DNA of 64,000 bases. Origin: a virus. Lineage: Duplodnaviria; Heunggongvirae; Uroviricota; Caudoviricetes. Under the pieces are notes generated by a model. The model was not told the origin of the DNA, did no database searches, and was given only the letters and a program-made list of their open reading frames with translations. Positions 34,223-36,585 of this stretch are shown piece after piece. Both the position numbers and the translations under genes were made by a program. Each line of letters begins with the position of its first letter. Positions within the stretch are counted from its first letter, which is position 1. The stretch lies in IMG/VR virus record IMGVR_UViG_3300045988_155334, one strand, 5' to 3'.

Positions 34223-35587
34223 ATGTCTGCATCCCCTCTTGAATCCATGCCAAATTCCCTTAGTGCAGAACAAGCTGTACTTGGTGGCTTAATGCTTGAT
34301 AACTGCCGCTGGGATGAAGTTGCAGATCGTATAGTTGCTGATGATTTTTATACCAGTGCTCATCGTGAAATTTTCAGTGAGATGGAGAGGTTATTAAGTC
34401 ATGGCAAACCGATTGATTTGATAACACTTGCTGAAGCACTTGAACAGAACGGTAAATTAGAACGCGCCGGTGGTTTTGCGTACCTTGCGGAGATGTCAAA
34501 GAACACGCCCAGCGCGGCAAATATTTGTGCTTATGCGGATATCGTTCGTGAACGCGCGGTTGTTCGTGAAATGATTTCCGTCGCAAATGAAATAGCTGAA
34601 GCTGGATATGCGCAGGATGGCAGGGGCAGCAATGAATTGCTGGATATGGCCGAGCGCCGCGTTTTTGAAATAGCTGAAAAACGACAAAAGAGCGGTAGTG
34701 GTCCAAAAGATATCGCCAGCATTCTCGATGCAACGGTATCTCGCATAGAAGAGTTGTTTCAGCGACCGCATGATGGTGTAACGGGGCTTGATACCGGATT
34801 TACCGATCTCAATAAGAAGACGGCAGGACTTCAGGCGTCCGATCTCATTATTGTCGCCGCCCGCCCATCGATGGGGAAGACTACGTTTGCGATGAATCTC
34901 GTCGAAAATGCCGCAGTCCGTAACGATAAGCCCGTATTGGTTTTTAGCCTTGAGATGCCGAGCCACCAGCTGATGATGCGCTCACTGGCTTCTCTTGCAC
35001 GCGTTGATCAGACTCGTATTCGAACAGGGCAACTTAACGACGAGGATTGGGAGCGGGTTTCTGGCGCAATGGGGATTCTGTTGGACAAGCAGAATATTTT
35101 TATTGATGACTCAAGCGCCCTGACACCTACAGAGCTTCGTTCCCGCGCTCGTCGTGTTTATAAAGAAAATGGTGGTTTGAGCATGATTATGATCGACTAC
35201 CTGCAACTTATGCGCGTCCCCGAGCTGCAAGATAACCGAACGCTGGAAATTGCCGAGATTTCTCGCTCACTGAAGGCTTTGGCGAAGGAATTACAAGTAC
35301 CGGTGGTGGCATTGTCACAACTTAATCGATCGCTTGAACAGCGTGCGGACAAACGACCGGTAAATTCAGATTTACGTGAATCAGGAGCAATTGAGCAGGA
35401 CGCAGACCTGATCATGTTTCTGTATCGCGACGAAGTTTATCACCCGGATAGCGAAATGAAGGGCATTGCCGAGGTGATTATCGGTAAGCAACGAAATGGC
35501 CCAATTGGCACGGTGAGATTGGCTTTTAACGGCCAATACTCACGGTTTGATAACTATGCTGGTGCTGACTGGCAAGAGGATTATTAA
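34223..35587 (+). CDS. ban: Ban, DnaB-family replicative helicase
   Basis: ORF from 34217 (GTG); ATG 34223 has a GGAGTG ribosome-binding site; Walker A GARPSMGKTTFAMNL; DnaB C-terminal motifs. Confidence 0.9.
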   Translation: MSASPLESMPNSLSAEQAVLGGLMLDNCRWDEVADRIVADDFYTSAHREIFSEMERLLSHGKPIDLITLAEALEQNGKLERAGGFAYLAEMSKNTPSAANICAYADIVRERAVVREMISVANEIAEAGYAQDGRGSNELLDMAERRVFEIAEKRQKSGSGPKDIASILDATVSRIEELFQRPHDGVTGLDTGFTDLNKKTAGLQASDLIIVAARPSMGKTTFAMNLVENAAVRNDKPVLVFSLEMPSHQLMMRSLASLARVDQTRIRTGQLNDEDWERVSGAMGILLDKQNIFIDDSSALTPTELRSRARRVYKENGGLSMIMIDYLQLMRVPELQDNRTLEIAEISRSLKALAKELQVPVVALSQLNRSLEQRADKRPVNSDLRESGAIEQDADLIMFLYRDEVYHPDSEMKGIAEVIIGKQRNGPIGTVRLAFNGQYSRFDNYAGADWQEDY

Positions 35588-36585
35588 TGCAATGGAATGA
35601 GGAAAAGCCGATGAACATCCTGATCATTGGGCGAAAATTTGAAGCTATCAGTGATGTGAAAACATATACGGAAATGTGGGCTTACAACCTGGCCTGCGCC
35701 TTTAGTGAGGCTGGGGTAACATTGCAATACCATCGTCCATATTCCCCCGGCGTCGAAAGCCCGGAGGATTATGTTGAAGCTGTGTTGACTGCTGCGACCG
35801 CATGTTCTGCGAAGGCCATTTTGGCACCAGGATTGAGGTATTTTACTACGGTACCCAGGGAGATAGGCATGCAACTGTGTCGCCGATTCTCTGGATGGGT
35901 AGCCCAGGTATATGACGGTTCTATGCTGGATTCGGCACCAGTCGATATTACTTTTACTGTCCGCGATGATACCTGGCGGTACCTGGATAATCCCGGCAGG
36001 TTAGAGCGTCATAATCGCTTTAACAAACATGTTGGATGGGCAGCGAATCAGGATCTGTTCCATCTGGAAACCAAAACAGACGATGTTCTGCGTATTTTTG
36101 TAGACCACGCGGCATTTGATGTTAGTGGGTTTGATCACTCCTTAAGTATCCTTATGAACCTTCAGCGCCTGACCGTTCCGTATGAGGCCAGAACGCTGAC
36201 CGATGACGGATTGGTTACCATTGAGCCGGGGAATATTTCGGTAACCCCATACAGACGGACTCCGGTACCAGCAACCGAATTTGCAGCTGAATTGCGTAAG
36301 AGTGACGTTTTTATTGTTACGCATCCCGAAAGCCTTGGATTAACTGTTCTTGAGGCGGCAATGTGTGGGGCGTTGGTATTAACGCCTCCCGATTGCCTTC
36401 CGCCAGATCGCCTGGCTTTGGTGAACCATATGGTTATCAAGTCGCGGATTGATTGGGATGAGGTTATTGCTCGCGTTGATCGCGTGAAAAATGCTGAAAA
36501 GGTCCAGTGTCACACCTGGTCGGCAATTGCGGAAAAGATGCTTGAGACGTTTATCACGCAGAAACCGTCGCGCGGTAACGGATAA
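35587..36585 (+). CDS. Dbn, GT-B glycosyltransferase-like protein
   Basis: 332 aa; start overlaps the ban stop (TAATG); C-terminal segment resembles the nucleotide-sugar binding region of group-1 glycosyltransferases. Confidence 0.45.
   Translation: MQWNEEKPMNILIIGRKFEAISDVKTYTEMWAYNLACAFSEAGVTLQYHRPYSPGVESPEDYVEAVLTAATACSAKAILAPGLRYFTTVPREIGMQLCRRFSGWVAQVYDGSMLDSAPVDITFTVRDDTWRYLDNPGRLERHNRFNKHVGWAANQDLFHLETKTDDVLRIFVDHAAFDVSGFDHSLSILMNLQRLTVPYEARTLTDDGLVTIEPGNISVTPYRRTPVPATEFAAELRKSDVFIVTHPESLGLTVLEAAMCGALVLTPPDCLPPDRLALVNHMVIKSRIDWDEVIARVDRVKNAEKVQCHTWSAIAEKMLETFITQKPSRGNG

Follow-up and report, generated by a model that had tools for sequence, protein, structure and literature searches.

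A predicted GT-B glycosyltransferase encoded behind the ban helicase gene of a P1-like phage-plasmid, and its genomic association with pmgO, pmgP and pmgQ

Introduction

Why would a gene with the features of a sugar transferase stand directly behind the gene of a replicative helicase, and downstream of phage tRNA genes? The question is raised by a 64,000-nucleotide stretch of DNA from a virus of the Caudoviricetes (IMG/VR record IMGVR_UViG_3300045988_155334), referred to here as the window, in which an open reading frame (ORF) at positions 35587–36585 follows ban, the gene of a DnaB-type helicase. A sequence-only reading of the locus had suggested a GT-B glycosyltransferase that modifies a component of replication or translation. 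We find that the ORF is the ortholog of dbn from phage P1 and that its product, Dbn, is by prediction a GT4-type GT-B glycosyltransferase, and we consider it probable that Dbn performs one step of glycan assembly together with PmgO, PmgP and PmgQ, with a lipid-linked or lipopolysaccharide (LPS) core acceptor favoured.

Identity and predicted fold of Dbn

The ORF shows 97.3% nucleotide identity to P1 dbn (NC_005856, 72659–73657), and is 97–98% identical in DNA to P1 dbn, P7 glt and the equivalents in RCS47, SJ46 and other P1-like phage-plasmids. Its product shares ~98% amino acid identity with P1 Dbn, P7 Glt and the RCS47 protein and equals them in length, in its position between ban and gene 5 and in annotation, the differences being a few substitutions and, for the P7 copy, a later annotated start. 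Over its whole length (residues 1–332 of 332) the protein matches phrog_2518 (E 8.5e-240), which is labelled 'unknown function' in PHROGs. The P1 record describes Dbn (YP_006544) as 'function unknown, possible glycosyltransferase', the P7 record as 'putative glycosyltransferase' (glt), and RefSeq lists the RCS47 copy as 'glycosyltransferase family 4 protein'. The idea of a glycosyltransferase has stood in public databases since 2004, the year of the P1 genome paper; the sequence-only reading was right on this point, yet it equals the existing annotation. A literature search returned no functional study of dbn and no paper tying dbn to pmgO, pmgP or pmgQ.

The resemblance of the C-terminal half to group-1 glycosyltransferases, which had prompted that reading, is real but weak: residues 229–315 match PF00534 (Glycos_transf_1) with E 1.5e-5 and 25.0 bits, just below the gathering score of 26.4, and a precomputed table gives PF00534.27 for a cluster representative that is 98% identical. 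The question of fold is settled by structure prediction. An AlphaFold2 model of Dbn computed from 17 homologs (mean pLDDT 87.8, pTM 0.85) has two Rossmann-like alpha/beta domains with a cleft between them, and matches solved GT-B structures across both domains. When the model was compared with the PDB by Foldseek, 97 matches were obtained at E ≤ 1e-3, and the top listed matches were GT-B glycosyltransferases or GT-B-fold epimerases, led by the GT4-type enzymes GlgM (7.8e-10), PimB', BshA and GtfC. The predicted fold is that of a GT-B, as had been anticipated from the sequence.

The model is accompanied by a motif. Dbn carries the E-x7-E signature of nucleotide-sugar binding in GT4 enzymes (Table 1), and both glutamates, E248 and E256, are invariant in 17 homologs at 38–98% identity; in an alignment of 100 sequences, with relatives at 21–58% identity, E256 is invariant, E248 is kept in at least 90%, and ~15 further positions are conserved. 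A Dbn profile run against 1.84 billion representative proteins gave only 380 matches at E ≤ 1e-3, and two distant relatives, P0151 (28.4 bits) and P0099 (29.9 bits), exceed the PF00534 threshold that Dbn narrowly misses. Dbn and its relatives form a family of their own, well removed from mainstream GT4. Identity of Dbn to the retaining GT4 enzymes PimA, PimB', BshA, GlgM and WaaG (Glycos_transf_1) is only 8–15%, with GT5 glycogen synthase as another close structural neighbour; compared with the GT4 enzymes Dbn is shorter (~320 residues), has an invariant D-H and D where basic residues for diphosphate binding would be expected, and shows family signatures of its own, GWAA and D110. By modelled fold and motif, Dbn is a small (~324–332 residues), highly divergent GT4-type GT-B glycosyltransferase; its activity, donor and stereochemistry are inferred. 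The best sequence match among PDB chains, KtrA (E 7e-5), was discarded as a spurious Rossmann-type hit inflated by a duplicated domain.

Genomic partners of dbn

Outside the P1 lineage Dbn homologs at 38–58% identity were available from seven phage loci: L004 and L167, a related pair of lambdoid contigs; L166, which is also lambdoid; L006, a contig of an unclassified phage; L003 (Citrobacter CP101055) and L168, phage-plasmids distant from P1; and L173, the 111-kb E. coli phage EP_H11. Two scans of IMG/VR with Dbn alignments, one led by P1 and the other by a distant homolog, returned almost only P1-like loci and so added no breadth to this survey. Homologs of pmgO, pmgP and pmgQ are present in all seven phage loci. 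Their order with dbn is pmgO-pmgP-(189-aa gene)-dbn-pmgQ in L004 and L167, where the block lies upstream of terS/terL, pmgO-pmgP-dbn-pmgQ in L166 and EP_H11, and pmgP-dbn-pmgQ-pmgO in L006; the block is contiguous in these five loci, and in L003 and L168 all four genes lie on one strand within 7 kb. Gene order thus varies by lineage, though linkage is retained. In INPHARED, Dbn was found in 22 records, every one of which also encodes PmgP and PmgQ (found in 27 and 31 records, respectively). A natural fusion, P0090 (522 aa), joins an MptE-like domain of the PmgO/P type (residues 24–215, E 2e-32) to a Dbn-like domain (residues 219–520, E 1.6e-49). Because of this co-occurrence in about seven independent phage lineages, the variable but tight linkage and the domain fusion, we place Dbn in a module with the three Pmg proteins; this computational link, drawn from sequence comparison, is the new point of the present analysis.

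The helicase and the tRNAs behave differently. No DnaB homolog lies near the dbn homolog within the available flanks of any of the seven loci, and no Ban homolog was found in the flanks of the bacterial dbn-like loci described below. The adjacency of ban and dbn is confined to the P1 lineage and did not recur in the unrelated genomes. A tRNA near the dbn homolog was found in one of four non-P1 loci scanned, L003, where the tRNA has a CAT anticodon. The functional link to helicase and tRNAs that the sequence-only reading had drawn, and with it the idea that Dbn modifies part of the replication or translation apparatus, is therefore not supported: what the dbn-bearing phages share is genes of the pmgO, pmgP and pmgQ types, and bacterial relatives of dbn lie in polysaccharide loci.

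Some features of these loci are recorded here in their own right. The L003 tRNA (6155–6230) lies ~1.8 kb upstream of the dbn homolog, echoing the trnI-ban-dbn arrangement of P1, with the place of ban taken by two unknown genes, phrog_8514 and phrog_15291. The fifth gene between pmgP and dbn (L004 7435–8004, L167 9435–10004; 189 aa) has no homolog in the window and a weak match to Nucleotid_trans (PF03407, E 0.019). Other members of the Dbn family, of ~520–555 aa, have a C-terminal extension of ~200 aa, which in P0110 is a methyltransferase domain. In the Stenotrophomonas jumbo phages CM1 and RAS14, PmgP- and PmgQ-like proteins are accompanied by a protein of 552 aa whose C-terminal domain is Dbn-like; in RAS14 its gene (L174, 7590–9248) is 12–14 kb away from the PmgP- and PmgQ-like genes of the same genome. 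Of these genes, only the PmgP- and PmgQ-like ones are present in the jumbo phages XacN1 and Xoo-sp13 of Xanthomonas.

In the window pmgO, pmgP and pmgQ lie 6–9 kb downstream of dbn (Table 1), and their assignments come from matches between profiles and sequences only. PmgO and PmgP match the MptE-like family (PF01973) below threshold. A joint profile of PmgO, PmgP and their relatives matches the Campylobacter sialyltransferases Cst-II and Cst-I of family GT42 (E 4e-7 to 7e-5; Cst-II E 4e-7), and also a lipooligosaccharide (LOS) sialyltransferase and 5mu5, which we take to be the flagellin glycosyltransferase Maf; several MptE-like genes adjoining dbn homologs have precomputed WaaZ_KDO_III matches. 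In PmgQ the D-x-D motif is invariant, and its profile matches the Skp1 alpha-galactosyltransferase 6mw5 (GT8-like, retaining) at E 6e-6, with weaker matches to GT8 and glycogenin. P1-type phages would, on these matches, carry four glycosyltransferase-like genes of three classes. In the window, as in P1, the pmgO and pmgP ORFs share an overlap of ~100 nt, and in L003, L004 and L168 the homologous pairs overlap by 40–50 nt. Between pmgP and pmgQ the P1 lineage has ppp, a lambda-type Ser/Thr phosphatase gene (Metallophos E 1e-15; window 43688–44380); neither the non-P1 loci nor Cronobacter phage JK004 have it in their module.

Bacterial relatives

A scan of species-representative genomes gave only three loci, of which one was useful (L089, from Brucella pseudogrignonensis) and one was a 209-bp fragment. 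In L089 the dbn-like gene comes right after an MptE-like gene, and upstream lie two GT4-type genes, KpsM/KpsT-like genes for an ABC transporter and a Wzz-like gene. A Colwellia locus (L171) has the same type of layout plus a Poly_export gene, again with the dbn-like gene directly after an MptE/WaaZ-like gene, and in L169 the series runs from GT1 genes through an MptE/WaaZ-like gene to the dbn-like gene and a hexapeptide acyltransferase gene. GT4-type genes are present in all three, and some further relatives in the family carry a fused methyltransferase domain or stand beside GT92-type genes. These bacterial loci are typical of polysaccharide assembly at the cytoplasmic face of the membrane.

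In the Colwellia contigs a stop codon divides the Dbn-like frame into an N-terminal piece and a remainder (L171, 8153–8356 and 8360–9154; L172, 3934–4137 and 4141–4935). The split is found in two independent assemblies; a pseudogene, recoding at this site or an assembly error common to both might account for it.

A proposed glycan module

We propose that Dbn would add one sugar during the assembly of a short glycan, alongside three other phage glycosyltransferases. PmgO and PmgP (GT42/WaaZ-like) probably use an ulosonic acid activated with cytidine monophosphate (CMP), and PmgQ (GT8-like, DxD) would be a further enzyme of the module. For the donor of PmgO and PmgP, CMP-Kdo (3-deoxy-D-manno-oct-2-ulosonic acid) is our guess, made since it is, to our knowledge, the only CMP-ulosonic acid of E. 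coli K-12. The four genes, which elsewhere would form one late-expressed cassette between lysis and terminase genes, appear to have been split in P1, with dbn landing behind ban, and the genomic contexts point to bacterial polysaccharide loci as the probable source of the module. In keeping with such a cassette, the lambdoid phage phiNP has its PmgP- and PmgQ-type genes between Rz and terS, where accessory genes of the late operon are classically found. The most likely acceptor would be a glycan of the lipid-linked or LPS-core type, made on the cytoplasmic side of the inner membrane, with virion proteins as the main alternative. We rank the former first because of the bacterial contexts, the WaaZ, GT8 and GT4 enzyme classes and the lack of an export gene in the phage, and the latter second because of late expression beside structural genes. 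The adjacency of dbn to a helicase gene and to tRNA genes is then a matter of the operon architecture of one lineage and not of shared function.

Bacterial sets for LPS core or LOS combine the same enzyme classes, with WaaG (GT4), WaaO/R/J (GT8), WaaZ (Kdo III) and the Campylobacter Cst enzymes (GT42), and in this sense the phage module may work like them. All of the phage proteins appear to be soluble and cytoplasmic, which is a further likeness. Unlike those sets, they include no ortholog of a Waa protein, and the phage lacks genes for a flippase, a ligase or export. Accessory, dispensable phage genes for glycosyltransferases that change the virion or a glycan of the cell surface are familiar from the GtrABC seroconversion cassettes of prophages and from the virion-glycosylation cassettes of mycobacteriophages. 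GtrABC consists of membrane enzymes of the GT-A and GT-C types that are expressed in the lysogen, whereas the P1 proteins are soluble and pmgO, pmgP and pmgQ lie behind a late promoter and C1-controlled operators.

Selection and published deletion data

The dbn ORF is intact in 80 of 81 P1-like loci, which hold 53 distinct alleles, and the ratio of nonsynonymous to synonymous substitution (dN/dS) of P1-like alleles against the window copy is 0.06–0.15; dbn is therefore under purifying selection and is no relic. In-frame deletions have been made for dbn, pmgO, pmgP and pmgQ, and none of the four was among the five essential genes (PMC9024508). These results, and those of the knock-down given below, fit an accessory function, and make it less likely that dbn serves replication or protects DNA under laboratory conditions.

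Weighing of the alternatives

A number of observations weigh against the module that we propose, some of them touching the enzyme and others its setting. Curated glycosyltransferase models match Dbn marginally, the PF00534 gathering threshold is not reached, and PF00534 is matched at E ≤ 1e-3 by only 13 of 100 relatives. NCBIfam gave nothing useful for Dbn, nor for PmgO, PmgP or PmgQ; single-sequence and profile searches of PDB chains with Dbn gave no significant glycosyltransferase match, the 17-sequence profile reaching GT4 chains at E 0.18–0.8 only, around the nucleotide-binding motif. D173, H174 and D183 are invariant in the region RIFVDHAAFDVSGFD, where the Arg/Lys pair that binds the donor diphosphate in GT4 enzymes is expected after the first strand of the C-terminal domain. 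On a comparison that is a reading against typical GT4 motifs and not a residue-level structural superposition, the basic residues appear to be replaced by D173-H174 and D183; the donor chemistry of Dbn could be atypical, or other conserved basic residues (R224, R237 and R275) might do the work of that pair. As to setting, PmgP and PmgQ occur without Dbn in Cronobacter phage JK004, Citrobacter phage phiNP, XacN1, Xoo-sp13 and phi456. The phage lineages in which the genes co-occur number only about seven. By the P1 annotation, dbn belongs to the early, C1-controlled ban operon, and pmgO, pmgP and pmgQ lie behind a late promoter and C1 operators. Finally, plating and antirestriction were unchanged in the other 24 deletions, dbn, pmgO, pmgP and pmgQ included (PMC9024508), and in CRISPR interference the efficiency of plating was 1.3 for dbn, 1.1 for pmgO, 0.72 for pmgP and 1.4 for pmgQ, all nonessential (PMC10695390).

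Four other explanations of the gene have to be set beside the module. It could be argued that Dbn glycosylates a component of replication or translation, such as Ban or the phage tRNAs (for example by adding a queuosine-type sugar to tRNA-Asn), and that co-expression from the ban operon reflects a shared function. The stop/start overlap with ban and the three tRNA genes in one transcription unit with dbn are in keeping with this, the queuosine mannosyltransferase of eukaryotes is a GT-B of the GT4 type, and E. coli tRNA-Asn carries queuosine. Against it stand the seven non-P1 phage loci without a nearby DnaB homolog and the single tRNA among the four scanned, the six P1-like variants in which an ORF separates ban from dbn, the polysaccharide export loci of the bacterial relatives, and the dispensability of both ban and dbn; we regard this explanation as highly improbable, and rejected tRNA modification on genomic context. 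Much the same holds for a DNA sugar-transferase that shields phage DNA from restriction in the manner of the T4 alpha- and beta-glucosyltransferases, which are likewise GT-B enzymes of a phage. Structural matches of Dbn to the T4 enzymes are no better than those to dozens of other GT-B enzymes, its genomic partners are GT42-, WaaZ- and GT8-like, and its bacterial contexts are polysaccharide loci. P1 is not known to make the hydroxymethyl- or hydroxy-pyrimidines that would serve as sugar acceptors. Dbn differs from the T4 enzymes in that P1 has no known hydroxymethyl-base pathway, in that its deletion has no antirestriction phenotype, and in the partners of its gene. DNA glucosylation, very unlikely in our judgement, was rejected on this context together with the published absence of an antirestriction phenotype upon dbn deletion (PMC9024508).

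That Dbn is a decaying or catalytically dead remnant behind ban might be read from the lack of a phenotype on deletion or knock-down, the Pfam score below threshold and the apparent absence of the canonical basic residues; the intact frame in all but one of the P1-like loci with its low dN/dS, the conservation of E-x7-E and ~15 positions among 100 relatives, and the confident, compact structure model speak against such decay, which we hold to be scarcely credible. A more serious alternative, though still an unlikely one, is that Dbn acts alone on a small molecule or glycan of the host, independently of PmgO, PmgP and PmgQ, and that their co-occurrence reflects shared ancestry of accessory blocks. 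Some of its best structural matches are indeed to enzymes whose acceptors are small molecules (sucrose-phosphate synthase, BshA, GlgM, a pterin glucosyltransferase), P1 dbn and pmgO, pmgP and pmgQ are in separate operons under different predicted control, and several phages have PmgP and PmgQ without Dbn. The converse was never found, Dbn being accompanied by PmgP and PmgQ in all 22 INPHARED records and all seven non-P1 loci. This, the linkage kept through changes of gene order, the natural fusion of MptE-like and Dbn-like domains, and the dbn-like gene directly after an MptE-like gene in three separate bacterial loci are what set the four-enzyme module above a lone enzyme.

A wider picture of the module is possible but tentative. 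The four genes may be a portable cassette, derived from polysaccharide loci of the ABC-transporter type and present in P1, in unrelated enterobacterial phages and phage-plasmids and in some jumbo phages, that late in infection builds a defined oligosaccharide on the LPS core of the host (perhaps hiding or shortening the glucose receptor of P1, which would keep progeny from being wasted on debris) or on virion proteins; its unity might have escaped notice in P1 as the cassette is split there and three of its members are labelled 'putative morphogenetic'. P1 is a model phage, and it has four conserved, selectively maintained genes of the glycosyltransferase type. When dbn is taken together with pmgO, pmgP and pmgQ as one module, a 'possible glycosyltransferase' standing by itself becomes part of a pathway that can be tested, and knockouts for this exist (PMC9024508). 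If LPS remodelling or virion glycosylation were true, P1-like phage-plasmids, which are widespread carriers of resistance genes in Enterobacteriaceae, would have an accessory function of a new type, and this would explain the 'glycosyltransferase/sialyltransferase' morons upstream of terminase genes in lambdoid prophages.

Gene arrangement and the start of dbn

Table 1. Positions of dbn, its neighbours and its proposed partners in the window
Feature	Coordinates	Strand	Basis or remark
dbn ORF	35587..36585	+	332 codons from first ATG (ORF list)
E-x7-E motif, E248-SLGLTVL-E256, in block THPESLGLTVLEAAMCG (DVFIVTHPESLGLTVLEAAMCG)	36328..36354	+	GT4 nucleotide-sugar-binding signature
pmgO, GT42/MptE-like (CMP-sugar transferase-like), putative pathway partner	42520..43182	+	phrog_4603 E 4e-74; PF01973 E 6e-5, sub-threshold
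pmgP, MptE-like paralog of pmgO, putative pathway partner	43080..43706	+	phrog_2111 E 3e-131
pmgQ, GT-A/GT8-like, DxD motif D79-L-D81, putative pathway partner	44377..45078	+	phrog_1962 'glycosyltransferase' E 1e-127
ban, DnaB-type replicative helicase, 456 codons	34217..35587	+	PF03796 E 7e-108; PF00772 (DnaB N-terminal domain) E 3e-35; annotated ban in P1
TAATG overlap of ban stop and first dbn ATG	35585..35589	+	read from sequence
Alternative, family-conserved start codon ATG (M9, 'MNILIIG')	35611..35613	+	GAGG 8 nt upstream
tRNA-Asn	32081–32156	same as dbn	upstream of dbn
tRNA-Thr	32159–32234	same as dbn	upstream of dbn
tRNA, CAT anticodon	33862–33937	same as dbn	upstream of dbn
Hairpin, 11 bp, A-run and T-run on its sides, between dbn and gene 5	36606..36632		RNA folding

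The window has the gene order of P1, with tRNAs, tciABC, the tRNA with the CAT anticodon, ban and dbn in series, convergent with genes 5, 6, 24, 7 and 25; it is the baseplate gene 5 that converges directly on dbn. With a GC content of 0.49, close to the 0.48 of the window, dbn does not stand out as a recent arrival from a foreign source. A hairpin of -17.6 kcal/mol (z -3.2; none of 200 shuffles folds equally well) begins 21 bases past the dbn stop and abuts the end of the convergent baseplate gene, which makes dbn the last gene of its transcription unit, and the hairpin is likely to be a bidirectional terminator closing the ban-dbn operon. It was missed by a scan with consensus promoters and terminators, which found fewer promoter-like sites than in shuffled controls. 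We conclude that dbn closes the C1-controlled ban operon of a P1-like phage-plasmid, and that it is almost certainly co-transcribed with ban, its start lying 0–24 nt after ban.

The overlap of the ORF with the ban stop that the sequence-only reading had pointed out is borne out, since the last base of the TAA of ban (35585–35587) is the A of the ATG at 35587, an ATG that has a GAGG Shine-Dalgarno sequence 7 nt upstream. Among 81 P1-like loci the junction is TAATG in 73 and TGATG in two, so that an overlap with the ribosome-binding site inside ban is present in 75, and in the remaining six an ORF is inserted. Strict translational coupling of ban and dbn is plausible.

Homologs start at the position of M9 in 12 of 16 full-length aligned sequences, and the first eight residues of the long form, MQWNEEKP, are unconserved and of low confidence in the structure model. 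The ORF that separates ban from dbn in the six variants (L078–L082 and L087) has 100 codons and belongs to phrog_12809, of unknown function; in L078 it occupies 9702–10004, corresponding to window 35587–35611, and overlaps both of its neighbours (TGATG and ATGA). It opens with ATG CAA at the ban stop, matching the first two codons of the long form of dbn, and ends in the ATGA overlap with the M9-equivalent ATG. As this ATG is the sole possible start of dbn in the six variants, M9 is a competent start in natural variants. The shared ATG CAA suggests, from sequence, an in-frame deletion or insertion at the junction, so that the first ATG of the window may be a leftover of the small inserted ORF, fused in frame, and the true start of dbn may be the second ATG, at 35611.

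Farther downstream in the window, pap (46716–47222), annotated 'acid phosphatase' in P1, matches the PNK-phosphatase HAD domain PF25109 (E 8e-12).

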